Source: Ruminococcus flavefaciens
GTDB lineage: Bacteria > Bacillota > Clostridia > Oscillospirales > Ruminococcaceae
DNA length: 64,000 nt
Assembly (NCBI RefSeq): GCF_028725585.1
Contig: NZ_JAQYRV010000150.1
Direction: 5' to 3' (one strand)
In this document: positions 1-15,772 of the stretch, piece by piece
Numbering within the stretch: position 1 is the first letter of the stretch
How the letters are laid out: every line of letters begins with the position of its first letter
Program-made: the position numbers and the translations under genes
The notes under the pieces: generated by a model
Seen by the model: the letters and a program-made list of their open reading frames with translations, nothing else
The model's database searches: none
What the model was told of the DNA's origin: nothing

Positions 1-465
1 CTTAGAATACTTTGTATAGTTGTCAACTGTTACAACACCGCCAGGAGCTGCACCTGTGTATGTGTCATCGATCTGAATAGCAGCAGCTACACAAACGCCA
101 CCAACGCACTCTGCGTTCCAAGCCTTGTTCTTAGCCTTCTCCATGTAGTTGTCAACCTTGCTCTTGAACTCAGTTCCGTTATAAGTATAGCCATTAGAAG
201 CATTTGGAGTGAATGTACAAGCTGTAGACTTAGCAGCACATGCGATTTTCTGTACTCCGCCAGCTTCCTGTGACTCTTCATCAAGCTCTACGAGAGCTGT
301 GTTGATAGCCTTCTGGAGTGAGTTAGCTGCTGAGTTAGCTGAAGAAACCTTTGACTTCTTAACGTAACCGAGCATTGAAGGAACGAGGATTGCTGCGAGA
401 ACACCGATGATAGCGATAACAACGATGAGCTCAATAAGTGTAAAACCTTTTCTTGTAGTTTTCAT
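1..465 (-). CDS. pilA: Type IV major pilin, 3' end cut by the window edge (absent from ORF track)
   Basis: Manual translation from ATG at 465: MKTTRKG|FTLIELIVVIAIIGVLAAILVPSMLGYVKKSK... This is a class III signal peptide with F1 and E5. RBS AAGGAGG lies upstream, the frame is open to base 1, and it has its own strong promoter. Confidence 0.93.
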   Translation of the reverse strand, partial: MKTTRKGFTLIELIVVIAIIGVLAAILVPSMLGYVKKSKVSSANSAANSLQKAINTALVELDEESQEAGGVQKIACAAKSTACTFTPNASNGYTYNGTEFKSKVDNYMEKAKNKAWNAECVGGVCVAAAIQIDDTYTGAAPGGVVTVDNYTKYSK

Positions 466-568
466 AAGAAAACCCTCCTTAAATAATATAGATTTGTGAA
501 AGCCCTTGCTTTCACTTCATTTTTGGGTTTGGGATTTTTTTAACTCCCTTTCCTTTCCCTGTGATTAT

Positions 569-1088: not shown

Positions 1089-2189
1089 TCAGCCCTGCAT
1101 TCCACCTCTGGGAGCTCCGCCCATCTGTGAAAGGAAGCGATAGAATTCCTGCTTGTCGAGGCACTTTTCGAGAGCATCGACTTCGCTGATAACGTTCTTG
1201 GATACGAGTCTTGCAAGCTCCATATCCAGAGACATCATGCCCTGCTGCTTACCTGTCTGGATAGCAGACTGAACAAGGTGGATCTTGTTATCACGGATCA
1301 TAGCCGAGATAGCGTCTGTAACGTTAAGGATTTCCATACAAGCAATACGTCCTGTACCGTCCTTCTTAGGAATAAGGGTCTGTGAAATAACAGCTACAAG
1401 GTTGTTAGCGAGCTGTGTTCTGATCTGCTGCTGCTGATGCTCAGGGTAAACGTCGATGATACGGTTAATAGTATCAGCTGCGGATGTTGTATGAAGTGTT
1501 GACATAACGAGATGTCCTGTTTCAGCGGCAGTTACAGCAGCCTGGATAGTCTCGAAGTCACGCATTTCTCCTACGAGGATAACATCTGGGTCCTCACGAA
1601 GTGCAGCTCTCAGAGCAAGAGCAAATGACGGAACGTCGTCGCCGATCTCTCTCTGGTTTACCATACATCTTTTATGCTCGTGAACGTACTCGATAGGATC
1701 CTCTACAGTTATAACATGAGCGCTTCTGTTAAGATTAACGAAGTCGATCATAGCTGCAAGAGTTGTAGATTTACCTGAACCGGTAGGTCCTGTTACGAGA
1801 ACAAGTCCACGAGGACGCATTGCGAAATCCGCAAGGATCGGAGGAAGTCCGAGATCCTCGAGTGTAGGGATATCATTTCTCAGAAGACGGATAGCGATAG
1901 CAGGCTTACCCTTCTGGAAGTATACGTTTACACGGTGACGGTAACCGCTTCTTGTTGTGAACGAGAAGTCAGTATCGTGGTGATTGTTTACGCTTGTCTG
2001 CTGAGCATCGTTTGTCATCTGATGAACGATATTGAGTATTTCTTCTTCATCCATTTCAGGATACTGTGAACGCATTGTTCTGAGTGTACCGTTAAGACGT
2101 ACAACAGGTGCGATCCTGTCTGTAAAATGAAGGTCAGAACAGCCGAGGAGTCTAACCTCGTCAAGTATTCTATGAATTTCTATTGCCAT
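1089..2189 (-). CDS. pilT: Type IV pilus retraction ATPase
   Basis: N-terminal SDLHF, Walker A GPTGSGKST, EDPIEY, LREDPDVILVGEMRD and TGHLVMSTLHT motifs; 366 aa. Confidence 0.95.
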   Translation of the reverse strand: MAIEIHRILDEVRLLGCSDLHFTDRIAPVVRLNGTLRTMRSQYPEMDEEEILNIVHQMTNDAQQTSVNNHHDTDFSFTTRSGYRHRVNVYFQKGKPAIAIRLLRNDIPTLEDLGLPPILADFAMRPRGLVLVTGPTGSGKSTTLAAMIDFVNLNRSAHVITVEDPIEYVHEHKRCMVNQREIGDDVPSFALALRAALREDPDVILVGEMRDFETIQAAVTAAETGHLVMSTLHTTSAADTINRIIDVYPEHQQQQIRTQLANNLVAVISQTLIPKKDGTGRIACMEILNVTDAISAMIRDNKIHLVQSAIQTGKQQGMMSLDMELARLVSKNVISEVDALEKCLDKQEFYRFLSQMGGAPRGGMQG

Positions 2190-2219: not shown

Positions 2220-3902
2220 TTATACTGTATATGTAGCTCTTACAAGCTCATCTATAGATGTTTCTCCTGCCATAACAAGCTCAGCAGCGTTGTCACGAAG
2301 AAGCTTTGTGCCGTTAGCCTTAGCAGCCTTTTCGATCTCTTCCTTAGTACCGCCTGCTGCGATGATAGAAGAAACAGTTGTTGTACAGTGAATGATCTCG
2401 TGGATAGCAGTTCTTCCTCTGTAGCCTGTGTTGTTGCATACAGGGCATCCGCCGGGCTCATAAATCTGGATAGAATGATCTAATCCCATGAGGTCACTTT
2501 CTTCGGGAGTTGACATTCTTGGCTTCTTACACTCAGGGCAGAGAACCTTAACAAGTCGCTGTGCGATAACACCGATAAGTGATGTAGCAACCATGTATGG
2601 AGCAACGCCCATATCAACAAGACGAACAACTGTAGAAGCAGCGTCGTTTGTATGAAGTGTGGAAAGAACCAAGTGTCCTGTGATAGCGGCACGGATACCG
2701 ATATCTGCTGTCTCGGTATCACGCATCTCACCGATCATTACTACGTCAGGGTCCTGACGGAGGATAGAACGAAGAGCTGCAGCGAATGTCATGCCGGCTT
2801 TCATGTTAACCTGACACTGGTTGATACCGTCGATAGCCTTTTCGACAGGGTCCTCAACTGTTACGACGTTTACGTTTGGCTTAGCGATCTCACCAAGTGC
2901 AGCGTAAAGTGTAGTTGTTTTACCTGAACCGGTAGGTCCTGTTACGAGGATAACGCCGTGAGGAACTCTCAGCATTGACTCGAACAGTGTATAGTTGTAA
3001 TCAGACATACCGAGATCCGTGATCTTACGGAGTGCGATCTGTCCTGTTGAAAGAATTCGGATAACGATCTTTTCACCGTGTACCATAGGAAGTGAAGATA
3101 CACGGACATCAAGTGTTGTTCCGTCAACGACCTGTGTGAAACGGCCGTCCTGAGGTATTCTCTTTTCAGCGATGTTCATGCCGCTGATAAGCTTGAAACG
3201 TGTTGTGAGCGCACTATGAACTGCACTGGAAATATTCATGAGTTCAACGAGGTCGCCGTTTACACGGATACGTATTCTTGTATACTTGTCAAATGGCTCG
3301 ATATGAATATCGGTAGCGTCTGCTCTGTAAGAGTTTTCTACGATAGTTGTTGCAAGCTTAACGATAGGAGCACTTTCAACTCTGTCCTTAGACTCGATAT
3401 CAGCCTCAGTCATCTCACCAAGGTCGCCGCCCATACCTGCAACACCTTCGAGAACGCTGTCAACATTCTGCATTGAATAACACTTACCAATAGCCTTATT
3501 GATAGCTGATGTTGTTGCAAGAACAGGAACGGTATCCATACCTGTAGAAACCTTGATGTCTTCGAGGACGATAAAGTTTACAGGATCGTTTGTAGCTACT
3601 GTAAGACGCTTACCTTGTACATTGATAGCGATTACAGTGTGCTTTCTTGCAAGAGCCTCAGGTACCATCTGTACAGCATCGGTATTGATCTCGATATTGT
3701 CAAGGTCAACGTACTGAACTCTCAGGTTTCCTGCAAGTGCTTTTGCGAAATTAACTTCTGACATGAATCCCAGCTCAACAACTACGTCACCAAATTTCTT
3801 TGATCCGTTTGATGCTTTCTGAGCTTCAAGTACCTGCTGAAGCTGTTCGCTTGTGATCAGCCCTTGATTGACTAAGTAGTCACCAATTCTCTCGTTTCTC
3901 AT
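2220..3902 (-). CDS. pilB: Type IV pilus assembly ATPase with N-terminal MshEN motif
   Basis: DIHIEP, IAEKRIPQDG, GPTGSGKTT, LRQDPD motifs and a tetracysteine Zn motif (CPEC...CPVC). N-terminus begins RIGDYLVNQGLIT. Confidence 0.95.
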   Translation of the reverse strand: MRNERIGDYLVNQGLITSEQLQQVLEAQKASNGSKKFGDVVVELGFMSEVNFAKALAGNLRVQYVDLDNIEINTDAVQMVPEALARKHTVIAINVQGKRLTVATNDPVNFIVLEDIKVSTGMDTVPVLATTSAINKAIGKCYSMQNVDSVLEGVAGMGGDLGEMTEADIESKDRVESAPIVKLATTIVENSYRADATDIHIEPFDKYTRIRIRVNGDLVELMNISSAVHSALTTRFKLISGMNIAEKRIPQDGRFTQVVDGTTLDVRVSSLPMVHGEKIVIRILSTGQIALRKITDLGMSDYNYTLFESMLRVPHGVILVTGPTGSGKTTTLYAALGEIAKPNVNVVTVEDPVEKAIDGINQCQVNMKAGMTFAAALRSILRQDPDVVMIGEMRDTETADIGIRAAITGHLVLSTLHTNDAASTVVRLVDMGVAPYMVATSLIGVIAQRLVKVLCPECKKPRMSTPEESDLMGLDHSIQIYEPGGCPVCNNTGYRGRTAIHEIIHCTTTVSSIIAAGGTKEEIEKAAKANGTKLLRDNAAELVMAGETSIDELVRATYTV

Positions 3903-4037: not shown

Positions 4038-4919
4038 ATGTTTGAATTTGAAAATATGCTCCACGATGAATTTACCGAGCTACCTTTCAAGATCATGTTT
4101 TACGTCATCATTTTCCTGTTTGGCATTTGTATCGGAAGCTTCCTCAACGTCGTCATTTTAAGACTGCCTGCCGGCAAGTCGATACTCGGAATAGGCAAGA
4201 CCAAAGAGGACAAGGAAAAAGCTTCTCACTGCATGACCTGTGGTGCTAAGATCAGACCCATTGACCTGATACCTGTTTTCAGCTGGCTTATGCTGAGGGG
4301 AAAATGTCATAACTGCGGTCAGAAGATCTCACCGCGTTACCCGATCGTAGAGTCGCTCAATGGTATCCTCTACGTTCTGACGTTCTTTGCTTTGGATATT
4401 AATGTTAAATCCATAATAACCTGCGTTCTCATGTCTTTCCTTATTTGTATAGGATTTATCGACTGGGACACTAAGGATATTTACATCAGCATGATCGCTG
4501 TAATACTTATCCTTTCCGTTCCGCTTCACCTCTTCTACTCACGGGAGTATGGAGATGTTACTCTCAAGAGCCGCATCATCGGCGCATTTATCATCAGTGT
4601 ACCATTCTTTATCATCGGAGAAGTCAGCCGACCGATCATCAGAAAGAAATTCGGTGAAGACTTCCGAGCAATTGAACTTGGCGATACATATCTGATGTTT
4701 GCCGCAGGTGCATTTCTTGGAACACAAGCTGTTATCGTTTCAACATTTATCGGTATTATTGTTGCAGCCATTGGCGGACTTATCGTAAAGATGGTCACCA
4801 AAGACTCAAAGTTTGCATTTGGTCCATTCCTTGCTATCGGAATAGCCATCGGTTCACTGTGGGGATCACAGATTGCTCAATGGTATCTTAGCATTCCCGA
4901 AAGGATCAGCGGAAACTGA
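4038..4919 (+). CDS. pilD: Prepilin peptidase / N-methyltransferase
   Basis: GSFLNVVILRLP, CxxC pairs (SHCMTC, GKCHNC), ISPRYP, aspartate motifs FIDW and LGD, C-terminal FAFGPFLAIG. Confidence 0.95.
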   Translation: MFEFENMLHDEFTELPFKIMFYVIIFLFGICIGSFLNVVILRLPAGKSILGIGKTKEDKEKASHCMTCGAKIRPIDLIPVFSWLMLRGKCHNCGQKISPRYPIVESLNGILYVLTFFALDINVKSIITCVLMSFLICIGFIDWDTKDIYISMIAVILILSVPLHLFYSREYGDVTLKSRIIGAFIISVPFFIIGEVSRPIIRKKFGEDFRAIELGDTYLMFAAGAFLGTQAVIVSTFIGIIVAAIGGLIVKMVTKDSKFAFGPFLAIGIAIGSLWGSQIAQWYLSIPERISGN

Positions 4920-4929
4920 ACTCCGAGAA

Positions 4930-4980
4930 AAAACAAAAAAATAAGTACAGGCAGCAGCATTGACTGCTGCCTGTTTTTTA
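4930..4980. terminator. Bidirectional intrinsic terminator between pilD and the minor pilin operon
   Basis: ACAGGCAGCAG-6 nt-CTGCTGCCTGT (4947-4974), with a T-tract on + and an A-rich tract upstream. Confidence 0.85.
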
Positions 4981-4984
4981 CTTA

Positions 4985-6013
4985 TTAAACAAGTTCGTCA
5001 GGATATGCAAATACAAAATAGATATCGTTATTGAAGTCTGTTGTGTTATTTGCAAATGAAGCAAATCCGGGACCACATTCTGCTGTTGACTGCAGAGTTA
5101 TATTTCCGTTTACCCTCTTATATCTCTTTACACCATAAGATGTTGTTGTACCTTCAGCTTTTGTTCTGAAGTTGATATTTGTAAGCGGGAGATTTGCAAT
5201 CTGAACTGCTACAGGCGATTTGAACGCTCTGTAAGTAAATGCTCCTGATGAACCATTCACGCTGACATCTACATAACCTGAATGCGTCTTATCCTTATCA
5301 AGTACGATAGAGATACCGACATTTGTTGCAGATAATCCTGTAGTATCATTGCTGTAATCCTTTTTCAGAGCCTTATACGTGTCATTTTCTCCATTAGGAT
5401 TAGGAACATTTACAAGTACATCCGAACCAAGTGCATAGCTGAAGCTATAAGCTGAATCCTTAGCATCGAAGAATGCAGGATTGAGCATATCTTCTTCAGT
5501 AAATGTTGTTGAAGTAGGAATAGGCTGATTGTTTTCAAACTTAAACATACTTCTTGTGATCTGTCCCTGCTTATGATTAGGATCACTTGCAGTATTGACA
5601 AGACGGATCACATAGATGATTCCCTTTACAGGATTTTCAGAAGTACCATTATATGATATTACTCCATTATAATGATCTTTTCTGAATTTTTCAGCAATAG
5701 CTGCTACCTCAGAAGAGTCGACCGTACCGTTTTGATTAGGTGTGAGAATAAGTCCTCCGGCAACATCTGTTATAGGATCCTTGTCGATCTTATCTGATGT
5801 GTAGACATAAAGACTGTCGGAATATTCAAGAGCACCTTGTAAGTACTCTTGAATATTATTTGCATACGAATAGGTTTTTTCCTGAAGACTGGTCTTGCTG
5901 AACATTCTTGAAACAGGGCGGGTAAGCGCCATAGTAGCTAAAAGCAGTATTGAAAATATTGCCATAACTATGATCAGTTCTATGAGGGTGAAACCTTTTT
6001 TGATCTTATTCAT
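4985..6013 (-). CDS. Minor type IV pilin (PilW/PilJ-like), 342 aa
   Basis: MNKIKKG|FTLIELIIVMAIF class III signal with E5; last gene of the pilC operon. Confidence 0.85.
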   Translation of the reverse strand: MNKIKKGFTLIELIIVMAIFSILLLATMALTRPVSRMFSKTSLQEKTYSYANNIQEYLQGALEYSDSLYVYTSDKIDKDPITDVAGGLILTPNQNGTVDSSEVAAIAEKFRKDHYNGVISYNGTSENPVKGIIYVIRLVNTASDPNHKQGQITRSMFKFENNQPIPTSTTFTEEDMLNPAFFDAKDSAYSFSYALGSDVLVNVPNPNGENDTYKALKKDYSNDTTGLSATNVGISIVLDKDKTHSGYVDVSVNGSSGAFTYRAFKSPVAVQIANLPLTNINFRTKAEGTTTSYGVKRYKRVNGNITLQSTAECGPGFASFANNTTDFNNDIYFVFAYPDELV

Positions 6014-6031
6014 ATTACGTCCACCTCCACA

Positions 6032-6538
6032 TTATGTCGTAGTAGTTGTTGTAGCAACTGCTGTTGTTGTAGTAACTGTGGTCTGGATCTGAATAAACTG
6101 TAAATTAAGATTTCCGTCAGGAGACCTCTTAGCGTCATTTATCTGCTTAGCTGTTCTTCCGTCAATATAAATATCTTCTGTGTTATACTTATTACCCTTC
6201 ATGGTAATTGTCGGATTATCATAAGACTTTTTATCAGCGCCCTTACTCGGATCATTTTTATCCTTAGCAACATAATAGTCGCCTTTTCCGCTGATAGATA
6301 CAGTGATATCCACATCTACAGGAGTAAGACTCTTACCGCTGCCGTAATTTACGACACCGTTTGCTGCATAAGGGGATTCCTTTGATATCTTGAGCTTCAT
6401 ATCATTTGTAGCCTTATTCTTTGCATCGATATGAGTACCGACAAGAATGAGAAGTCCGCCCATCATTGCAAAGATAGCAATTGAAATGATCATCTCGACC
6501 AGAGTCATGCCCTTAACTTTTTTATTACGTTTTTTCAT
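6032..6538 (-). CDS. Minor type IV pilin (PilV-like) with Thr-rich C-terminal tail
   Basis: KVKG|MTLVEMIISIAIFAMMGG class III signal with E5; ends TTVTTTTAVATTTTTT. Confidence 0.85.
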   Translation of the reverse strand: MKKRNKKVKGMTLVEMIISIAIFAMMGGLLILVGTHIDAKNKATNDMKLKISKESPYAANGVVNYGSGKSLTPVDVDITVSISGKGDYYVAKDKNDPSKGADKKSYDNPTITMKGNKYNTEDIYIDGRTAKQINDAKRSPDGNLNLQFIQIQTTVTTTTAVATTTTTT

Positions 6539-6553
6539 AAGAACATTCCTCCT

Positions 6554-9500
6554 TTATGAACCTGCAAAGTAGCCAAGCTCATAGTATCCAAGTGCTGTGT
6601 TAAAGCCTGCACTCTGTCCGCCGCCGCTTTTACCTGACTGACCGGACTCTGTGTAGTAAAGACCAAAACCATTCTGGCATTCTTCAATGTCACTGAAAAG
6701 CGCATTTCCTACTATTGGCGGTTTATTATTAGTAATGTCAATACTTGTTACTTCAGTGTCAGTCTTCCAGTTTACGCCGTATTCATCTGTATAGTCCGCT
6801 GTATAGATACCATTATGAGTAGCTTTGTATGTTGTGAACGGACACTTGAATGAACCTGTGAACTGGCATTGCTGATCACATACAATTTTTGTATTTTTCT
6901 CGCCAAAGAATTCAATACCCCAGTCCTTTTTGTAATCAAACGCTACACCGTCTTTGAGTTCCTTATTTACTATTGCAGAACCCTTAAGATTTAATGTACC
7001 CTTTATAAGGAAGCAAACTTTACCTTCCTGAAGTCCGTTAGCTGGATTTGTAAGATCAACGATAATCTCACGGTAAGTACTCTGGTCCTTTCCGTCAAGC
7101 TTGAAGTTATCAAGAACTACCCAGATTTCTTTTCCCTCCGGATTAATCGTAATAACCTCAGGAGCAATGCCCTTTAAAGTACAATCTTCTTTGATATAGC
7201 CGTTTGAAGACCATACATCAGTATTTCTCTGCACTGGATTTGTTTTTACATATGCATTCTTTGAACAATCATGGCCTGATGGAACTTTTGTGAGATATAC
7301 ATTCTCGCTAAAACCTTTTGCGACGTAATCATAGTCCATTTCTTTTCTTACTTCGTCAAGATTCTTTATTATCTTAGTCTTTGCATCAGCAGGTGTAAAC
7401 TTACCAGCCTGATCGTATGTACCATAGATATTCTCACGCTTCATTGACTCAGGATAAGCCTCAGCGCCATAGCTTGCATACGATGTGATCTTTGACGCAT
7501 CAAAACCTGAGTCCTTCTTAGTATGAGTTGCCTCATATTCACTTACAAGCTGCTGATCAGATTCTCTGTAATATGCAACTGCAAAACCAACTCTTTCATT
7601 TGTTGTTTCACCATCAAAATTTTTCAGAAGATAATATGCATCCTGATGTGTCCAAGTCTCAGCATCTGTAAGAAGTGTCTGTGACTCTGAATCATACCAC
7701 ATAAAATCATCTGCTGATTGTATAGATGTTTCTCTGTATATAGGATCTCCTGCTGTATCTGTTCCAACAACAACAAGATATACAGGGTAACTCTTCATGA
7801 CACCATCATCAATATGAGCTGTATACCATTCATTTACATACTCATCATGATATTTATGAGGCAGTTCATTTTCTAATTTTCCGCTGTCAACATTAATAAA
7901 TGTCTTTAATGCGTAAGTTGTCTTATCATCCCATGTACCTAACTGACCATTTTTAGCGCTCGTTATGATGTCATCAACATTACCGACGAATGTATAAGCT
8001 TCGTCTGTAAAGTTTTCGTCAGCATATGCATATGTAAATGAACCATCATCATTGTTTTGATAAAGCTTCATACCGGGAGCATATTCTGCATTCCATGTGT
8101 AATAGAGTGTCTTCCATGCTTCTTCGTCTTCTCCGCCCGGAGTTTTGCCCTCATGAGAACCGACATTCCATTCAAGCAGATCACGAGTAGGTAAAGTTTT
8201 CTTTTGAAGGTTTCCAAGCTGTGTATCAGAAGCTTCAACATATTCATTGTTGTAGCTTCTGTAACCTGATGTACCTGCATTAGCACCAAAAACATGGTCA
8301 CAATAGATCTTATTTACGCTCTTAAGATGGCTTTTTCCTGCGCTTTCTTCTTCAATGTAAAGATTTCCTTTAACAATAAGATCACCATTAATAGTAGTAT
8401 TTTTATTGATAACGCAATCGCCCATAACTCTTACATCACCATCAATAGTTATAGCTCCTATTGTAAGGTTACCATTACAGTAAATATTACCGCCGTGTGA
8501 CGCAATAAGATCTTCTGTCTTGTCGCATGTAGCAACATTTTCTGCCCATCTATAAAGATTATTGCTTCCGCTGCTCTTTATAATGTTATCTCCTGCGGTC
8601 AATGTTATATCGCCTTGATCTGTTTCAATTTTATAAGTCTTTCTGGGATTATACTCATCCATTAAGTACAGATCACCATTTATACTAAGATTATTCTCAG
8701 TTTCTATAGTACCTGCAAAAACATTGAATGGCTGATCTATGTCACCCGAAGTATCCTCAAGATCTACAATAGTTATAGTTGATTTGAAATACATTCCGCC
8801 ATCAACATATAAATATGGTATCTGCTTTTGAGTATAGTTCGAAGTCATCTTATACTGTGACATAAGTTGAACAAGTGGATTATTAGGAACAAACAGACTT
8901 CCATTGATGACTGTTTCTGAACAAGGTGTTGAACCTGAATCCTTTACCTTTATTGATAATGAACCTGTTTTAGCAAAAAGATCACCATTTACAAAAGTAA
9001 GTGAAGTCTCTGCTGTACAAGCATTATTAAGCAAGAAAGTAGATGGTGAGCTGTTTTTAAGACCTACACCAAGACCACCTGTGAACATACCACCGTTTGC
9101 GAATGAACCGTCACCGGCAGTGTTAAGGCCCTTGATCTTAGATGTCTGAGGAACATTAGTTCCGCTTGAGCCCTTCTTCTTTATGTAAGCAGAAATTGTA
9201 GCCTCTTCCTTAGCAACACGGCAGGTTGCTGTTATCTTAACAGTCTCTACCTCTGTCCACTTAGGACCTGAGCCGTCGTCCATGTATACCCAGTTTGTTT
9301 CCTTATGGAAATAAGCTGGATCACCTTCATGACCGGCATCGTAATAGCCCATTGGCTCTACGATAATCCTGTTTGCGTGCCATGTGTTGGAAGAATCGTA
9401 ATATCCTACAACACCCATAGTGTTATCAGGATTTGTTCCCGGAGCTGCAGGAGCTGAATTCTTAATAGTTACTTCGGGGTAAAGCGGACCTGTCATATTC

Positions 9501-9730
9501 TGAACAGCCGCAACTATACCCTCATCACGCTGCATTGCTTCGGTAAAGCTGGTAATTGCAGCCTTTGCCGTATAGCTTGCCTGCGATGAAGCATATGATT
9601 TGTGTGCTCTGTTATTCGAAGCCGATGCAAGTGCAAGCGTGCCCGTCAGGAATATAACGAGCAGCGCCATTACACATACGACCGTAAACAAAACAGAGCC
9701 GCGTAATGTTTTCTTGTTCTCTGTTTTCAT
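6554..9730 (-). CDS. Giant PilX/PilK-like minor pilin, putative tip adhesin (1058 aa)
   Basis: KTLRG|SVLFTVVCVMALL lacks E5, as PilX/GspK do, followed by ...ASSQASYTAKAA. Later repeats (GDLYL, GNIYC, GDVRV, GDLIV, GNLYI) suggest a beta-solenoid. Confidence 0.75.
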   Translation of the reverse strand: MKTENKKTLRGSVLFTVVCVMALLVIFLTGTLALASASNNRAHKSYASSQASYTAKAAITSFTEAMQRDEGIVAAVQNMTGPLYPEVTIKNSAPAAPGTNPDNTMGVVGYYDSSNTWHANRIIVEPMGYYDAGHEGDPAYFHKETNWVYMDDGSGPKWTEVETVKITATCRVAKEEATISAYIKKKGSSGTNVPQTSKIKGLNTAGDGSFANGGMFTGGLGVGLKNSSPSTFLLNNACTAETSLTFVNGDLFAKTGSLSIKVKDSGSTPCSETVINGSLFVPNNPLVQLMSQYKMTSNYTQKQIPYLYVDGGMYFKSTITIVDLEDTSGDIDQPFNVFAGTIETENNLSINGDLYLMDEYNPRKTYKIETDQGDITLTAGDNIIKSSGSNNLYRWAENVATCDKTEDLIASHGGNIYCNGNLTIGAITIDGDVRVMGDCVINKNTTINGDLIVKGNLYIEEESAGKSHLKSVNKIYCDHVFGANAGTSGYRSYNNEYVEASDTQLGNLQKKTLPTRDLLEWNVGSHEGKTPGGEDEEAWKTLYYTWNAEYAPGMKLYQNNDDGSFTYAYADENFTDEAYTFVGNVDDIITSAKNGQLGTWDDKTTYALKTFINVDSGKLENELPHKYHDEYVNEWYTAHIDDGVMKSYPVYLVVVGTDTAGDPIYRETSIQSADDFMWYDSESQTLLTDAETWTHQDAYYLLKNFDGETTNERVGFAVAYYRESDQQLVSEYEATHTKKDSGFDASKITSYASYGAEAYPESMKRENIYGTYDQAGKFTPADAKTKIIKNLDEVRKEMDYDYVAKGFSENVYLTKVPSGHDCSKNAYVKTNPVQRNTDVWSSNGYIKEDCTLKGIAPEVITINPEGKEIWVVLDNFKLDGKDQSTYREIIVDLTNPANGLQEGKVCFLIKGTLNLKGSAIVNKELKDGVAFDYKKDWGIEFFGEKNTKIVCDQQCQFTGSFKCPFTTYKATHNGIYTADYTDEYGVNWKTDTEVTSIDITNNKPPIVGNALFSDIEECQNGFGLYYTESGQSGKSGGGQSAGFNTALGYYELGYFAGS

Positions 9731-9797
9731 TTTTCTAACCGCCTTTCAAGTTATATCAACTTAATAACTATAGCGTATGATGTAGAAATTCCGCATC

Positions 9798-10601
9798 TTA
9801 ATTAGAAGGAACAGTATCAACATCCGGCTTTGCCATTTCATATACTGAGTAAAGTGTTATAGCAATTCTTACATCTGATGTATTTGATATTTTCTGTCCA
9901 CCAGCATCTACTGTTACCTCTTCGCCCTCTTTGCTTTCAGGAAGAGTTACATTTGCTGCCTTTGCCTTCTCCTGACCAAAGCTATAGTCAGAAATCGATA
10001 CCTGGTTGATCACAACCGACTTATCAAATTTCTTAAGTGCTTCAAGATAATCAAACACATTCTTCTTTGTACCGGTTATAGAAATTCCGTACTGTGTCTG
10101 AAGGATAGATTCTTTTGCTCTCTGTTCAACTGCTATGCTCTCTGCCATACGTGCATTCATTGCTTCTGCAAGTGAACCGTTGACATCAGCTGCATTTCTT
10201 AAATCAGCATCGTTATCCTTGATACTATTATAGTAGTATGATATCGGACTAAGCTTTGACTCAGCAAGCTCAACAGAATTTAATTTTACCTTTGTCTCTT
10301 CTGCAAACTTCTGCATATACTTATCAATAACGACAGGATTCTGAACATCACTTACAGGAACGAAGTTAGCTGTAAGTGCATTTGTATCATTATAGATATT
10401 AAGGATCTGCTCCTTTAAAGATGGGATCTGGTTGATCTTTGCTTCAATATCCTTTTTTGTCTTCTGAACATCTGAAAGAGATGCCTTATCTGCCTTGAGC
10501 TCTTTATTCTTAGGCTTGATCAGTGCAAAAAATCCCATAAGGAGAATAGCAACTGCTATAAGAATAGCTGCTATTATCTTATCTCTGTAATTAAGTTTCA
10601 T
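9798..10601 (-). CDS. pilO: PilO-like alignment protein
   Basis: Starts KLNYRDKIIAAILI with one N-terminal TM, then a coiled coil and a ferredoxin-like C-terminus (ISITGTKKNVFDYL); lies directly after pilMN. Confidence 0.7.
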   Translation of the reverse strand: MKLNYRDKIIAAILIAVAILLMGFFALIKPKNKELKADKASLSDVQKTKKDIEAKINQIPSLKEQILNIYNDTNALTANFVPVSDVQNPVVIDKYMQKFAEETKVKLNSVELAESKLSPISYYYNSIKDNDADLRNAADVNGSLAEAMNARMAESIAVEQRAKESILQTQYGISITGTKKNVFDYLEALKKFDKSVVINQVSISDYSFGQEKAKAANVTLPESKEGEEVTVDAGGQKISNTSDVRIAITLYSVYEMAKPDVDTVPSN

Positions 10602-10603
10602 TT

Positions 10604-12196
10604 TCAGTTAGCCTCCTCTGTGTTTTCAGAATTCTCTTCAGGATGATAAGCGCTCTTGAAACCTACAAGCTTTGCACTTGTATCAAATGCGATAACATCC
10701 TTCGGCTCTGCGCCTTCTTTTTCTTCTACGTTGATTCTGTATCCACTATAGGAAGAAGCACAGAATTTCGGATCATTAAGAATACTGTTAACATAATCCG
10801 AAGGAAGCTTCTGAGCATGCTCATCCTTATTCGCATCGCACTCTACATTAAATGTGATCGTACCATCTGAATACTGAGCATTCTTTACCTCGAAATTTTC
10901 GATCTTTTCTTCCTTACATCTCTCTTCAAGAAGTTTATCAAGTTCTTCATAAGCTGCTCCATCGATCACAGGCTGTGAAAGATAAGCATCATTTGCGTTA
11001 TTTACCTTTGTATAATAAGCATTAACTGTCTCTTTCATGTTGAGCAGACTCTGATGATGTGCAAGCTTCTGATTGGTTTCAGGGCTGTTTATAAACTCTT
11101 CGCACTTCTCGATATCATTCTTGATGCTCTTATCGCGAATAAGGAAACCGGCATATACACCGCCTACGATAGCAGCTGAACCGATAAGTGCTGCGAGCAT
11201 TGCTACATTTCCTGAGCTGTCGCTTCTGATCTTGTTTCTTACAGCTGTTCCCAGGTCAGTCTCAAGGAGGTTGATCTTTTCGATCTCTCTGTTACGCTTG
11301 AACATAGCGCCGATAGCGTTTGCATAAAGAGAGAACTCAAGATTTTCATGTCCGTGGATCTGTGGAGGAACATTGATAAGGCTGGTCTTAAGATCGAGCT
11401 TTTCAAGTTCATCTGTAAGTCTTACATACTCATGAGTATCACCGTAGAAGATTACATTCTCGATAGACTCACCTGTGTTACGGCTTCTGTGGAACTGAAG
11501 CATACGGAAGATATTCTCGTTAACGGCTTCGAATACGTAGTCGTCAGAATAACCGTAGTCAGCAGCATCGATAGAAGCGAAACGTGAGAATGAAAGCTGT
11601 CCCTGCTCATAGAGGTTGAGCGAGATGAAGTTGTTGTCGATCTGAACAGCGAGAAGAGGCATCTTTGATCTGATCTTTGTATCAGCAAGAAGAACCTTTG
11701 TGATACAGTTACAGCCGATCATAACTGATCTGAGGGAAATAGTCAGAAGCTTGAACATTTCTCTGTAGCTGTTTACGATCTCATAAGGACACGCTGTAGC
11801 GAGGATCTTGTACGAAGGCTCGCTTACTTCGCTGCTGTCTGCGTCACCGACTATGATGTATGACACGCTGTATGAATCATCAAGATTAAGCTCTGCCTGC
11901 ATCTGGAGCTTTACAGTCTTCTGAAGGTCCTGACCCTTGCCCTTGGCAACTGTCATTTCCTTAAAAATTGTAAGGTTGGAGGAGATCGAAACGATCGCTT
12001 CCTTATCAGGCATCTTGTGCATTTTAATAACATTGTTGATAAGAGTAGCAACTGCAGGAACATCCTTAACGTGTCCGTTAACGATAAGTCCCTCTTCTAC
12101 ATTTACAGTAGCAGCGGAATTGATCTTGATCTTTCCGTTGCCCTCAACGCCCTTAACAACTCGTATATTTCTATCAGTAATATCAAATGAAAGCAT
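10604..12196 (-). CDS. pilMN: PilM-PilN fusion protein
   Basis: Actin-like PilM region (LSFDITDRNIRVV, AVQIDNNFISL, VIFYGD), then one TM (AMLAALIGSAAIVGGVYAGFLI) and a PilN-like extracellular part. The fusion is known in clostridial T4P loci. Confidence 0.8.
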   Translation of the reverse strand: MLSFDITDRNIRVVKGVEGNGKIKINSAATVNVEEGLIVNGHVKDVPAVATLINNVIKMHKMPDKEAIVSISSNLTIFKEMTVAKGKGQDLQKTVKLQMQAELNLDDSYSVSYIIVGDADSSEVSEPSYKILATACPYEIVNSYREMFKLLTISLRSVMIGCNCITKVLLADTKIRSKMPLLAVQIDNNFISLNLYEQGQLSFSRFASIDAADYGYSDDYVFEAVNENIFRMLQFHRSRNTGESIENVIFYGDTHEYVRLTDELEKLDLKTSLINVPPQIHGHENLEFSLYANAIGAMFKRNREIEKINLLETDLGTAVRNKIRSDSSGNVAMLAALIGSAAIVGGVYAGFLIRDKSIKNDIEKCEEFINSPETNQKLAHHQSLLNMKETVNAYYTKVNNANDAYLSQPVIDGAAYEELDKLLEERCKEEKIENFEVKNAQYSDGTITFNVECDANKDEHAQKLPSDYVNSILNDPKFCASSYSGYRINVEEKEGAEPKDVIAFDTSAKLVGFKSAYHPEENSENTEEAN

Positions 12197-12217
12197 TTAT
12201 TCTTTCCACCTTTCCTT

Positions 12218-13417
12218 TTACTCGTTTTCGATGCTCTCCAGTGAGCCATAAAGTGCAGGGTATACACCACACACAACCATTCCTATGATAAGACCCATGA
12301 AGATAAGGAGGATAGGTTCTATCATACCTACAAGACGCTGAACAGCTGCATCTGATTCTTCTTCGTAGTAATCCGATGTCTTTTCAAGGATCGAATCAAG
12401 CGCACCGGACTCTTCGCCGACGTAAATAACCGAGCAGAACATAGGCTCGAATATTTCTGTACGTGTTATAGATGATGAAAGGGTCTCGCCCTGTTTTACC
12501 TCATCGACAACCGTTTCGAATTTCTCATCAACATATGAGTTGCCGAGAATAGCAGAAGCTCTCTGCAGGCACTCTACCATCGGGATACCGCTTGAGTAAA
12601 GTGAAGAAAGTGTTCTTGAAAAACGTCCTGTATATATCTTAGTGATAAGAGGACCAAATCCGGGTCCTTTTATGAGCATTCTGTCAAATTTCTTTCTGAA
12701 GCTCGGTATCTTCATAGCATATCTGAAGCCGAAAAATGCAGCTGCAAAAATAATAAGAAGTATGTACCACTTTGTCTTCAGGAAGTCACTGATAGCCGCC
12801 ATGATCTTTGTGAGAAGAGGCATCTTGCTCTTATCCTCGAACATACCGATGAAAGTAGGCATGATAACTGTAAAGAGGAAGATAACTATTACGATACAAA
12901 GCACGAGAAGTATGATAGGATAGATCATTGCACTTCTGATCGTATTCTTCAGCTTGTTTTCCTTTGCGTAGTGATCAGCCATTCGAGTCATGATGATATC
13001 CAGCGAACCACTGCTCTCGCCTGCGCCGACCATTGAAATAAGAAAGTCAGGGAATGAACCCGAGTGCATCTCGAGAGTTGACGAGAAAGACTCACCCTTC
13101 TGTACATTCTCGTAGATATCCTGCCAGATTGCCCTTGCTTTTTCATTCTCCTGCTCTTTGGTTAGGATATCGATGGCTTTTACAAGTGTAAGACCCGAAG
13201 TAAGCATCGCACTCAGCTGTCTACAGCAGAAGTTGAGTTCCTTCGTACCAAACTTGTAAATTGATTTTGCGTCACCTGAATCGCTTTCCTTATAATCCTT
13301 GACATACAAGCCTTTTTCTTTGGCTTTCTGTAAGAATTCCTGCTCATTCTCAGCATTGATGATTCCTTTTACCTGTCTGCTTTTTGCGTCCTGAGCTACA
13401 TAGGAAAAACTCTTCAT
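12218..13417 (-). CDS. pilC: Type IV pilus platform protein (T2SSF family)
   Basis: FCRQLSAMLTSGLTL, GAGESSGSL, AMIYPIILL, VGEESGALD and EPILLIFMG motifs. Confidence 0.95.
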   Translation of the reverse strand: MKSFSYVAQDAKSRQVKGIINAENEQEFLQKAKEKGLYVKDYKESDSGDAKSIYKFGTKELNFCCRQLSAMLTSGLTLVKAIDILTKEQENEKARAIWQDIYENVQKGESFSSTLEMHSGSFPDFLISMVGAGESSGSLDIIMTRMADHYAKENKLKNTIRSAMIYPIILLVLCIVIVIFLFTVIMPTFIGMFEDKSKMPLLTKIMAAISDFLKTKWYILLIIFAAAFFGFRYAMKIPSFRKKFDRMLIKGPGFGPLITKIYTGRFSRTLSSLYSSGIPMVECLQRASAILGNSYVDEKFETVVDEVKQGETLSSSITRTEIFEPMFCSVIYVGEESGALDSILEKTSDYYEEESDAAVQRLVGMIEPILLIFMGLIIGMVVCGVYPALYGSLESIENE

Positions 13418-13477
13418 GAAACCACCTCCATAATTAATTACTTGTGATGAACGTTTCTCACTGCCTTAATAATAACA

Positions 13478-13506
13478 ATTATAACATTTTAATAGTTACT
13501 TTTCAA
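13478..13506 (-). promoter_or_regulatory. Promoter of the pilC operon
   Basis: Minus strand TTGAAA (13506-13501), 17 bp spacer, TATAAT (13483-13478), with TGn. Confidence 0.75.
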
Positions 13507-13802
13507 TCGCTTTTTTGACATAAATAATCAACCGTTTTTTATCAATATTTACTAATAAATCTACTATCGGTAATATCGGTCAAACTAAACGGTTATTTTT
13601 TACAAAAAATTGACAAACAAGGCAGCCCAACATATGGTATATGCACACGTATACCAAACATTGTTAAACTTCCACAATAATTATATCACACTCACTTTTA
13701 AATTGCAACATAAAAGCTCATTTTTTCATCTTTTTTTTACAGAATTGTAAACTGCGGCAATTTGCTTATTGCTAATTTAGTTATTTTGACCGTTATGACA
13801 AA

Positions 13803-13837
13803 TAAACAAGGCGCTCCCGACAAAAATACGGGAGCGC
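13803..13837 (-). terminator. Terminator after uvrC
   Basis: GCGCTCCCG-9 nt-CGGGAGCGC (13811-13837), followed on the minus strand by CTTGTTTATTT. Confidence 0.7.
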
Positions 13838-13948
13838 AGGCAGTAAGCAGGTTAATTGTTTTTTACTATAGCTGCACCGTTTTTACCATTTCCGCCTCCG
13901 TATACTATTATAATATATAATAATATTACATAATATTCCTGCTGCACT

Positions 13949-15772
13949 TTACAGCTCACGGATAACTTTCCAAAGCTCCTTTGCTGTCTCGATGTTTACT
14001 CCTGCAACAGACGCTATCTCTTCGGAAGAAGCATTTCGCAGATTGGTTATAGTCTTATACTTCATAAACAGCTTCGCTGCTTTCTTTTCGCCTATTCCGC
14101 GTACATTAAGCAGCTCTGAACTGTAGGTCTTTTTCTTGTGGCGCGAGTGCATAAAGCTTACGGAATAGCGATGTACTTCGTCCTGTATACGCGTCACAAG
14201 GTCAAACACGTATTTCAGGCTGTTTATCTGTATCTCTCTGCCGCCTGTTGCAATGGCACGGGTACGGTGTTTGTCATCCTTTACCATGCCGAAAAGAGGT
14301 ATATCAAGTCCAAGTTCACGCAGTATAGGCGCTACCGCGTTCACATGACCCTTTCCGCCGTCGAGGAGTATAAGGTCAGGCTTTCGGGTGAAATACTCAT
14401 CGCCTTCACCTGTCACGATGTGCATGAGCCGCCTTTTGAGGACTTCGTGCATACTTCCGTAGTCATTCTGGAACTGCTGTTCCTTTATGGTAAAGCGCTT
14501 ATAGGCTTTTTTCAGCGGTCTGCCGTCCTCAAACACTACCATTCCCGCAACCATTGACTCTGAGGAAAGGTTCGATATATCGTAAGCTTCAATATATCTC
14601 GGCGGCTTTGCAAGACCGAGACTCTGTCCAAGCTGTTCAAGCGCAATGACTTCTTTGCCTGTACGGTCATTCTTGATAGCCGCATATTCGGCACTGTTGT
14701 TTTTGGCAAGCTTCAGAAGCTCAAGCTGTCTGCCCTTCTGCGGCACATGGAGCTTGACCTTGTGTTTTGTCTGCTCTTCAAGCATTTTCGTAATGAGTTC
14801 GCTGTCCTCGGGAATATGGTCAATTATGACAGAATGGGGTATATCCGGCTTTTTGTAGTAAAATTGCAGCATGAAACTGCTCAGGATATCCTCGCCCTTA
14901 TCGGGAAGTGGAAACTCGAATACAGCTTTGTCAAACAGCCTGTCCTCACGATACATGAGCACGGAGATGTAAATTCCGTCATAGAATTCCGCAACACCTA
15001 TAACATCCGCAGAGTCTACGCCGCTGTTGATTATCTTCTGTTTTTCCGAAGCCTTTTTTACTGCCGCTATCCTGTCGCGGAGCATTGCGGCTTTCTCAAA
15101 CTCAAGATTTTCAGCCGCCGCATTCATTTCCTCTTCCATGCGCTCGACTGACTCTGCACTTCCGCTTTTAATGAACTCCACTGCCTGCTCTACTGCATTC
15201 CTGTAGTCTTCGGCACTTATCTTACCTCTGCAAACGCCCATACACTGCTTGATATGATAGTTGAGGCACGGACGGCTCTTGCCGAAATCCTGCGGAAATT
15301 TCCGCTTGCAGGTTGGCAGCATGAACACACGGTTAGCCTCATTTACAGCCTCTTTTGTAATAAATCCGCTTGTATACGGACCAAGATATCTTCCGCCCTG
15401 CTTGGTGTTTTTTTCGTTGGTTATGCGAGGATACTCATCATCTGAAATTCGGATATAGTGATACCCCTTGTCATCTTTCAGAAGGATATTGTACTTGGGC
15501 TTGTGCTGCTTGATAAGACTGCACTCCAGCAGCAGAGCTTCAAATTCGCTGTCTGTTACGATAAAATCATAGTCATATACATTCGACACCATCGCCGCAA
15601 CTTTCGGCGTATGGTCAGGATTTTCACGGAAATAACTGCTGACACGATTGTGGAGATTTTTTGCCTTTCCGATGTATATTATGGAGCTGTCCTTTTTCCG
15701 CATTATATAAACGCCCGGCGAAGTCGTCAGCTTTGACGTTTTTTTCCTTAGATACGGTAATCTCGGATTCAT
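13949..15772 (-). CDS. uvrC: Excinuclease ABC subunit C
   Basis: GIY-YIG N-terminus (PGVYIM...IYIGKAKNL), UVR domain, EAYDISN, LILLDGGKG and C-terminal HhH (GIGEKK). Confidence 0.97.
   Translation of the reverse strand: MNPRLPYLRKKTSKLTTSPGVYIMRKKDSSIIYIGKAKNLHNRVSSYFRENPDHTPKVAAMVSNVYDYDFIVTDSEFEALLLECSLIKQHKPKYNILLKDDKGYHYIRISDDEYPRITNEKNTKQGGRYLGPYTSGFITKEAVNEANRVFMLPTCKRKFPQDFGKSRPCLNYHIKQCMGVCRGKISAEDYRNAVEQAVEFIKSGSAESVERMEEEMNAAAENLEFEKAAMLRDRIAAVKKASEKQKIINSGVDSADVIGVAEFYDGIYISVLMYREDRLFDKAVFEFPLPDKGEDILSSFMLQFYYKKPDIPHSVIIDHIPEDSELITKMLEEQTKHKVKLHVPQKGRQLELLKLAKNNSAEYAAIKNDRTGKEVIALEQLGQSLGLAKPPRYIEAYDISNLSSESMVAGMVVFEDGRPLKKAYKRFTIKEQQFQNDYGSMHEVLKRRLMHIVTGEGDEYFTRKPDLILLDGGKGHVNAVAPILRELGLDIPLFGMVKDDKHRTRAIATGGREIQINSLKYVFDLVTRIQDEVHRYSVSFMHSRHKKKTYSSELLNVRGIGEKKAAKLFMKYKTITNLRNASSEEIASVAGVNIETAKELWKVIREL

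Follow-up and report, generated by a model that had tools for sequence, protein, structure and literature searches.

A giant Glu5-less minor pilin with a partly exchangeable beta-helix body as a candidate pilus cap and fibre adhesin of Ruminococcus flavefaciens

With what does the pilus of a fibre-degrading Ruminococcus grip its substrate? That a type IV pilus helps Ruminococcus to attach to cellulose has been known since 1998-2002, and a 2026 review credits the major pilin only. A 64,000-nucleotide stretch of Ruminococcus flavefaciens DNA (RefSeq assembly GCF_028725585.1, contig NZ_JAQYRV010000150.1; hereafter the window) contains a type IV pilus locus in which one gene, at 6554-9730 on the minus strand, encodes a protein of 1058 residues (P0001, here called the giant protein). 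The reading that we favour, with a probability of roughly 0.68, is that this protein caps and primes a monoderm type IVa pilus as its K-type (GspK/PilX/PilK-class) pilin and carries a large, partly exchangeable beta-helix body. K-type pilins lack the glutamate at position 5 of the mature protein (Glu5). We regard the giant protein as the best candidate for the surface grip of these fibre-degraders.

Signature, fold and family of the giant protein

Positions 6554-9730 of the minus strand form a single open reading frame of 1058 codons, and its product divides into the following parts (here and below, a hyphen within a protein sequence marks the predicted prepilin-peptidase cut).

6554-9730, minus strand: gene of the giant minor pilin, K-type (Glu5-less), 1058 aa; orthologue of orfX of R. 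flavefaciens 007c
9698-9730, minus strand: leader peptide, aa 1-11 (MKTENKKTLRG); predicted cut after Gly11
9500-9697, minus strand: alpha1 helix, aa 12-77; Thr at +5; the most conserved part, homologous to the tapirin N-terminus
9161-9499, minus strand: beta-sheet of the pilin head, aa 78-190 (strands 107-186); proposed acceptor of the C-terminal strand
8291-9160, minus strand: beta-helix/solenoid body, aa 191-480, with GDLYL, GNIYC, GDVRV, GDLIV and GNLYI repeats; family-wide, mosaic
7451-8290, minus strand: central acidic Tyr/Trp-rich cassette, aa 481-760; exchangeable
6647-7450, minus strand: conserved C-terminal beta-rich domain, aa 761-1028
6557-6646, minus strand: Gly/Ser linker and terminal aromatic strand, aa 1029-1058 (...GYYELGYFAGS); candidate cis "C-beta" donor strand

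The N-terminus reads MKTENKKTLRG-SVLFTVVCVMALL, with Gly at position -1 and Thr instead of Glu at position +5, and then a hydrophobic stretch. A sequence-only reading of this DNA had described a class III signal without Glu5, and the signal was borne out: the basic leader of 11 residues ends in Gly (MKTENKKTLRG-SVLFTVVCVMALLVIFL), a hydrophobic segment comes after the Gly, and mature position 5 is Thr (MKTENKKTLRG-SVLFTVVCVMALLVIFLTG). When 93 homologues were aligned, G11 and L14 were invariant in all 93, and +5 was Thr in 92 of them, as expected of a K-type pilin. The first 60 residues are the best conserved stretch of the protein in this alignment, and R41 and Q50 are also invariant. Unlike the giant protein, the major pilin and both neighbouring pilins have Glu5. 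We also scanned the giant protein and 45 relatives against profile hidden Markov models. The N-terminus matched tapirin (E = 6e-6 for the giant protein; E <= 0.01 in 14 of the 45 relatives, the best at 1.2e-6), ComGG (in 4 of the 45) and GspK (E = 0.02 and 14.5 bits for the giant protein; best relative, E = 2.6e-4).

AlphaFold2, supplied with the 93-sequence alignment, gave a model with a mean predicted local distance difference test score (pLDDT) of 84 and a predicted template modelling score of 0.64. It contains a continuous alpha1 helix at 12-68 (57 residues, with an extension to 77), a small head formed by a beta-sheet at 107-186 and then beta-helix and beta-rich domains that together take up ~840 residues. 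The G-x-hydrophobic repeats fall in a region of many short strands (200-520), mixed beta domains continue to 1028, and a low-confidence Gly/Ser linker leads to a terminal strand at 1049-1056. All five repeat motifs quoted in the sequence-only reading as beta-solenoid-like were found (GDLYL at ~352; GNIYC, GDVRV, GDLIV and GNLYI in 413-466) and are modelled as short beta-strands. The central acidic, Trp- and Tyr-rich block that it described corresponds to residues 481-760, which have an isoelectric point (pI) of 4.29, 26 Tyr, 7 Trp, 15% aromatic residues and 17.5% Asp plus Glu; the pI of the mature protein overall is 4.7. The domain parsing by AlphaFold and Foldseek that it had suggested delivered alpha1, the head and the beta-helix body, and gave no significant PDB fold match.

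The best PDB matches, among the best 50 of the 69 Foldseek hits with E <= 10 on which our statements rest, were all non-significant: the FwdC beta-helix (E = 0.16), ComZ (E = 0.18-0.32), pectate lyases and the beta-helices of two-partner secretion (TPS) proteins. Viral structures gave generic beta-helical, fibre- or depolymerase-like matches, and the sole significant hit was an unnamed protein with a TM-score of 0.09. As no PDB match reached E < 0.1 and the viral TM-score was so low, we dropped any functional reading of these fold matches. A sequence profile search of the PDB with the giant protein likewise found no significant match, and the body is therefore structurally uncharacterised apart from its generic beta-helix. 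The repeat stretch weakly matches the beta-helices of bactofilin, LpxD and MinC. Bactofilin (PF04519; E = 0.033 for the giant protein and E <= 0.01 in 8 of the 45 relatives) was rejected as its identity because the match scores 14.9 bits against a cut-off of 27.9 and covers 54 residues only, and because the protein is exported, with a prepilin-type signal and a membrane helix. The match is a product of generic beta-helix repeats.

The family is large. A word-indexed search found 104 relatives, and in an exhaustive profile search 1222 representative clusters reached E <= 0.001, 432 of them E <= 1e-30. In data with one genome per species, 137 loci encode a relative; the best 80 of the 137 were retrieved for the gene-order and locus results below, and they come from R. 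flavefaciens, other Ruminococcus and metagenome-assembled genomes of Oscillospiraceae and Clostridia, with one record labelled Alistipes. Neither the giant protein nor any of the 45 relatives scanned exceeds the cut-off of a Pfam or NCBIfam model. Public names of relatives, among them P0030 and P0042, are inconsistent ("hypothetical", "type II secretion system protein", "polymer-forming cytoskeletal protein"). The last of these names, which one relative bears, derives from bactofilin and is an artefact to which the beta-helix repeats give rise. The orthologue in R. flavefaciens 007c lies on contig 00916 at 12179-15010 (locus L015). In the only published description of that cluster, from 2013, it is annotated "orfX, hypothetical protein, SP, TMR" (PMC3672088), and the pil2 cluster of the strain is given in supplementary file 9 of the same paper (PMC3672088).

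The C-terminal strand and the pilus operon

In 221 diverse sequences, the extreme C-terminus consists of a conserved strand preceded by a variable linker rich in Gly and Ser; in the strand, position 1050 is aromatic (Tyr, Trp or Phe) in 96%, 1052 is Ile, Val or Leu, 1054 is Tyr in 81% and 1055 is Tyr or Phe in 90%. Mean-field direct coupling analysis was applied to the N-terminal 215 and C-terminal 90 residues (~181 effective sequences), with separate N-terminal and C-terminal block alignments in place of a full-length alignment. The control, a hairpin predicted in the head, was recovered (z = 5.2). Of 320 possible ladders between the terminal strand and the N-terminal block, the antiparallel pairing of 1049-1056 with 143-150 ranked first (z = 4.7) and its antiparallel pairing with 180-187 ranked second (z = 3.1). 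Both partner segments are predicted head strands, and no ladder from 1049-1056 to the C-terminal block stands out. The motif and the covariation suggest that the C-terminal strand docks on the sheet of the pilin head. K-type pilins, or PilY1 in trans, contribute an extreme C-terminal beta-strand that completes the head sheet of the K-pilin and licenses assembly of the tip complex (PMC13533445, 2026). Where PilY1 is lacking, the K-pilin of the system often has a large insertion that separates the acceptor sheet from the donor strand, as in CpaL and the competence pili of Thermus and Vibrio (PMC13533445). The P0001 family fits this plan of a K-pilin with a large insertion, with its terminal strand as the candidate cis donor.

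The giant gene is the fourth of six minus-strand genes (pilC, pilM-pilN, the pilO-like gene, the giant gene and the genes of the 168-aa and 342-aa pilins), which are flanked as follows.

13478-13506, minus strand: promoter-like site, near-consensus TTGAAA-17-TATAAT with TG, upstream of pilC
12218-13417, minus strand: pilC, first gene of the six-gene unit
10604-12196, minus strand: pilM-pilN fusion, upstream of the giant gene in the same transcription unit
9798-10601, minus strand: pilO-like gene, directly upstream of the giant gene in the same transcription unit
6032-6538, minus strand: minor pilin of 168 aa (KG-MTLVEM, Glu5), with weak GspI/ComGE-like N-terminal matches; starts 15 nt after the giant gene
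4985-6013, minus strand: minor pilin of 342 aa (KG-FTLIEL, Glu5); AlphaFold2 pLDDT 92, alpha1 at 10-62
4947-4974, minus strand: terminator, a strong hairpin with a T-run just 3' of the 342-aa pilin gene, which ends the six-gene unit
4038-4919, plus strand: prepilin peptidase PilD (A24 family), the presumed processing enzyme
2220-3902, minus strand: pilB
1089-2189, minus strand: pilT, retraction ATPase
1-465, minus strand: major pilin gene pilA, cut by the window edge

The order pilC-pilMN-pilO-giant-168aa-342aa-(pilD)-pilB-pilT was identical in 80 of the 80 loci retrieved, pilA comes after pilT wherever the sequence extends that far, and both partner pilins always keep the motif G-(F/M)TLxE. 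The partners show weak N-terminal matches to GspI, GspJ and ComGE, and the 342-aa protein is modelled with high confidence as a pilin (AlphaFold2 pLDDT 92). As the sequence-only reading had it, there is no sign of a pilY1-type gene: neither the pilus operon proteins nor eight large open reading frames elsewhere in the window gave a PilY1/PilC-type domain, the smaller ones lying outside the scan. PilY1 was also rejected as the identity of the giant protein, in which, as in the operon and the eight large frames, the Pfam PilY1/PilC C-terminal beta-propeller domain is lacking.

A 4753-nt contig from a sheep gut metatranscriptome extends over 4997-9746 and takes in the giant gene together with the two minor pilin genes, and its end at 4997 is close to the terminator (4947-4974). 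Its word depth, a poor measure of expression, is ~43 over the giant and minor pilin genes vs ~26,000 over pilA (run X25). A single RNA contig at a depth of ~43 indicates that the giant gene and the two pilin genes are co-transcribed at the levels of minor pilins, and the contrast with pilA fits the stoichiometry of major and minor pilins. Family size, gene order in 80 genomes and metatranscriptome coverage together place the observation of this protein far beyond chance. DNA nearly identical to the window occurs mainly in pig gut metagenomes.

Some further features of the locus were noted. In gut metatranscriptome contigs, the pilA region (window 1-467) has a depth ~600-fold above that of the other pilus genes, and the major pilin is among the most abundant transcripts of the organism in vivo. 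The 168-aa pilin ends, without a domain after it, in a Thr-rich tail (..TTVTTTTAVATTTTTT, window 6032-6085) that may be glycosylated, and its orthologues span 117-254 aa across loci. The window also encodes, at 47913-50591 on the minus strand, a glycoside hydrolase family 9 cellulase of 892 aa that carries a carbohydrate-binding module of family 3 (CBM3), consistent with a cellulolytic Ruminococcus.

Strain variation in the body

When the locus was compared with those of other R. flavefaciens strains, PilB and PilT were 95-99% identical and PilC was 81-94% identical, vs 32-45% for the giant protein and 40-52% for its two partners. The GC content is ~0.35-0.40 in the block formed by pilO, the giant gene and the minor pilin genes vs 0.42-0.48 in pilB, pilT and pilC, and most of the giant gene is lower in GC than the core pilus genes. 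This block (4985-10601) is the part of the locus most divergent between strains; PilO itself is 51-65% identical between strains in which PilB is 95-98% identical.

Divergence is unevenly spread along the giant protein. Alpha1 is 55-100% conserved except in the most distant relatives, and in most relatives the central region shows ~10% identity; its length varies between 0 and 445 residues. When the parts of 222 sequences were clustered by BLAST, alpha1 plus head and the beta-helix each formed one cluster, and so did 217 of the 220 C-terminal parts. By contrast, the central region (481-760) fell into 41 clusters unrelated by BLAST and was missing in 10 of the 222 members. Unrelated cassettes are found on backbones that are 71-85% identical, and one cassette type recurs on backbones that are only ~30% identical.

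The closest allele (L084:2072-5242) is 81% identical to the giant protein, and comparison of the two genes shows how this variation is arranged. Synonymous differences are zero at both ends (aa 1-80 and aa 1041-1058). The synonymous divergence (dS) is 0.1-0.18 over most of the gene, rises to 0.9-2.2, near saturation, at aa 201-480, and is ~1 at aa 601-640 and ~0.7 at aa 961-1040. The ratio of nonsynonymous to synonymous divergence (dN/dS) is below 1 in every segment. Because dS and dN rise together and dN/dS stays below 1, recombination is preferred over positive selection, and positive selection was rejected as the source of the hypervariable patches. The alignment with the closest allele indicates that the giant gene is a recombinational mosaic between close strains, with no local burst of substitution. 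The constant ends, which can be thought of as a plug, seem not to share their history with the variable body.

Tapirins, other tip proteins and rival explanations

The N-terminal match to tapirin offers a precedent. Tapirins are cellulose-binding proteins encoded beside the pilus locus of Caldicellulosiruptor, and their C-terminal domain is a beta-helix (10.1101/359786). Tapirin mutants fail to bind cellulose quickly, the N-terminus has been proposed to mediate association with the cell, and the proteins were localised over the cell surface and poles and were not shown on pili (10.1101/359786). As a control, we examined a genuine tapirin locus from metagenome contigs (L081), whose protein scores 897 bits on the tapirin model NF051896. 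The tapirin gene follows pilM, pilN, pilO and the gene of one Glu5 pilin (L081:4335-5180; tapirin at L081:5191-7119), and the protein has an N-terminus (...KKVDG-SVLIVVIIVIAVL...) with Gly at -1 and no Glu5. A second tapirin copy in the same locus, from 11309 onwards, has an N-terminus identical to that of the first (..KKVDG-SVLIVV..). These N-termini suggest that tapirins are themselves K-type pilin-like, which the tapirin literature cited here does not mention.

The likeness between the two proteins has a sharp boundary. In an hhalign comparison, residues 6-64 of the giant protein aligned with residues 14-72 of tapirin (36% identity, probability 84%, E = 7e-6), and there was no alignment past residue 64. 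NF051896 gives the giant protein 24.8 bits, over residues 7-61 only, vs a cut-off of 600. The cellulose-binding beta-helix of the 4WA0 type reached a profile E of 4.7 and was absent from the best 50 of the 69 PDB fold hits. Membership in the tapirin family was therefore rejected, as the N-terminal helix alone aligns. Since the alignment is confined to residues 6-64, what the proteins have in common is a K-type N-terminal module and a position in the locus, and their bodies are not detectably homologous. Tapirins resemble the giant protein in their G-SVL N-terminus without Glu5, in a gene that comes after pilO together with that of a Glu5 pilin, in a body that holds a beta-helix and in a cellulolytic Firmicute host. 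They differ in length (~640 aa vs 1058 aa) and at the C-terminus, and the giant protein also has a swap cassette in its centre. On this comparison we take tapirins to be the nearest functional analogue of the giant protein, with homology limited to the N-terminal ~60 residues.

Three better-known K-type pilins have a similar plan. GspK (PDB 3CI0), CpaL of Caulobacter and ComZ of Thermus (PDB 6QVI) have, like the giant protein, a Glu5-less class III signal and Glu5 minor pilins encoded alongside, with no PilY1. They also have an N-terminal pilin-like domain, a large insert and a conserved extreme C-terminal beta-strand (PMC13533445). The insert of ComZ, like that of the giant protein, contains a beta-solenoid. 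The insert is ~840 aa long in the giant protein vs ~180 in GspK and ~470 in CpaL, and no significant match to any of the three was found in sequence or fold. The giant protein further differs from them in belonging to a monoderm type IVa pilus and in having a body with an exchangeable cassette and a strain mosaic, and its body is acidic, contrary to expectation for the DNA-binding ComZ. Among monoderm type IVa pili, very large minor pilins are known in Streptococcus sanguinis, in which an adhesive role has been proposed or shown for PilB (with a von Willebrand factor A [vWA] domain) and PilC (with a lectin domain) (PMC6916266, PMC8179133), and PilK of Clostridioides difficile groups with PilU and PilV in a proposed tip complex (PMC9556784). 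The giant protein has no vWA, lectin or other recognised module and is likened to these pilins by description. PilY1/PilC of diderms has the same proposed role, that of a large tip protein whose C-terminal strand licenses assembly and which serves in adhesion. In diderms, calcium sites regulate PilY1. PilY1, however, is a separate non-pilin with a beta-propeller and donates its strand in trans, whereas in the giant protein the pilin and the body are one polypeptide.

From the signature, the gene order and the predicted fold, we infer the following sequence of events. PilD would remove the 11-residue leader after Gly11, and the hydrophobic alpha1 would anchor the protein in the membrane. Lacking Glu5, the protein would be restricted to the place of the first, topmost subunit. 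After the body of ~840 residues has folded, the protein's own extreme C-terminal aromatic strand would reach back through the Gly/Ser linker and complete the pilin head in cis. Together with the co-transcribed 168-aa and 342-aa Glu5 pilins, it would then prime polymerisation of the major pilin, so that the pilus would be capped by a large acidic beta-helix and beta-rich body whose cassette and beta-helix segments are swapped between strains. The displayed body most probably mediates attachment, with plant cell-wall material as the leading candidate ligand. A role as a plant-fibre adhesin may reasonably be drawn from the biology of the Ruminococcus pilus, the analogy with tapirins and the aromatic-rich cassette. 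R. albus adheres to cellulose by means of pili (PMC3672088; PMC6916266), and the major pilin of the present cluster is up 19-fold on Avicel in R. flavefaciens 007c (PMC3672088).

Several observations weigh against the view that the giant protein is a tip pilin and adhesin. The curated GspK model NF037980 (T2SS_GspK) has a cut-off of 130 bits vs the 14.5 bits of the giant protein, and neither the protein nor the relatives scanned match Pfam PilX_N or T2SSK; because it reaches no curated threshold, the giant protein is not filed in the GspK model family. Foldseek found nothing in the PDB at E < 0.1 for the whole model, and ComZ (6QVI), although among the top three distinct PDB entries, is a non-significant match (E = 0.18-0.32, TM-score ~0.1). 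The 342-aa partner has no significant PDB fold match, with no GspJ/PilW or pilin fold among its hits, and so the label of a GspI-J-K trimer and the I-J assignment are nominal, based on signature and gene order only. The docking of the C-terminal strand is drawn from a motif and from the covariation of only ~181 effective sequences. Contig depth measures expression poorly, and metatranscriptomes can hold DNA. No CBM, lectin, vWA or other known adhesin domain was detected in the giant protein or the 45 relatives. In R. albus, the major pilin itself is reported to bind cellulose, and the pil locus shows no transcriptional response to cellulose (PMC4300822).

On balance, the PilX/GspK-like tip pilin proposed in the sequence-only reading is favoured by the Glu5-less class III signal, alpha1, the fixed place beside two Glu5 pilins, the weak GspK and ComGG matches and the covarying C-terminal strand, and is not favoured by the curated family thresholds. 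Its proposal that adhesin modules are fused to the tip pilin holds for the architecture, a pilin and a large body in one protein, and receives no support from known adhesin or carbohydrate-binding domains. Binding of carbohydrate or cellulose by the body, and the cellulosome-independent route to the substrate that the reading also proposed, are conjectural. The tapirin precedent, the exchangeable cassette, the recombinational mosaic and the C-terminal strand motif formed no part of it.

The lack of a known binding domain in the relatives scanned would also be expected if the giant protein were a K-type tip and priming pilin whose body is no specific adhesin and acts as a plug or shield, a retraction stop or an aid in crossing the wall, its variability serving escape from phages or antibodies. 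Recombinational variation with dN/dS below 1 everywhere is as expected for antigenic or receptor variation, and the cassette is wholly missing in 10 of the 222 relatives. However, every one of the 222 members keeps the beta-helix and C-terminal domains, each as a single homologous cluster, and this implies that a function other than bulk has been conserved; among proteins with a beta-helix body, the closest analogues are tapirins and ComZ, and both bind ligands; and the Tyr/Trp-rich composition of the central cassette is typical of carbohydrate-binding surfaces. We judge a body without specific adhesion unlikely. It is decidedly improbable that the protein is not in pili at all and that its N-terminal helix is an uncleaved or signal-anchor segment that keeps a surface protein on the cell membrane or wall beside the pilus machinery, as has been assumed for tapirins. 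An invariant Gly at -1, a short basic leader and the absence of Glu5 in 92 of 93 homologues are hard to explain for a mere anchor. The strict co-location and co-transcription with two canonical minor pilins also speak against it, and so does the conserved strand at the extreme C-terminus, which covaries with the head that adjoins alpha1. Such an anchor would nevertheless agree with the 2013 annotation of the orthologue, which gives only "SP, TMR", with the failure of the family to reach any pilin HMM threshold and with the observation of tapirins, which have the same N-terminus, over the cell surface and poles and not shown on pili (10.1101/359786).

That the protein serves natural transformation, as a ComZ-like receptor of extracellular DNA at the pilus tip, is very improbable. 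ComZ does stand near the top of the Foldseek matches, though without significance (E = 0.18-0.3), both proteins join a pilin to a beta-solenoid, and the retraction ATPase PilT is present. However, with a pI of 4.7 for the mature protein and of 4.29 for its cassette, the protein is strongly acidic, and for this reason we disfavour a DNA receptor. Hypervariable cassettes would also be unexpected in such a receptor, and the pilus of this lineage has been linked to growth on cellulose (PMC3672088).

If the giant protein is the pilus cap, it is the obvious candidate for what makes fibre attachment specific in the chief cellulose degraders of rumen and hindgut, and the exchange of its cassettes from strain to strain would have a bearing on how strains partition niches. 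It would also be a monoderm type IVa example of the recently described licensing by a cis C-terminal strand. Its family of 1222 representative clusters is large and unannotated and is worth defining; it follows the known K-type plan and is unusual in its size and its exchangeable body. A wider possibility, which we advance only tentatively, is that fibre-degrading Firmicutes, both Ruminococcus of gut and rumen and Caldicellulosiruptor of hot springs, share an ancient design in which a retractable type IV pilus grips the substrate directly with its Glu5-less cap pilin as the adhesin. On this view tapirins would be pilins at the tip, neither free nor wall-bound, which would provide a testable answer to the question of how they are held on cells. 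As part of the same tentative proposal, the Ruminococcus body would be a plug-in system, in which a constant plug (leader, alpha1, head, C-terminal strand and the two partner pilins) carries recombining beta-helix segments and cassettes. The segments and cassettes would set the plant polymer, particle surface or partner cell that each strain grips.

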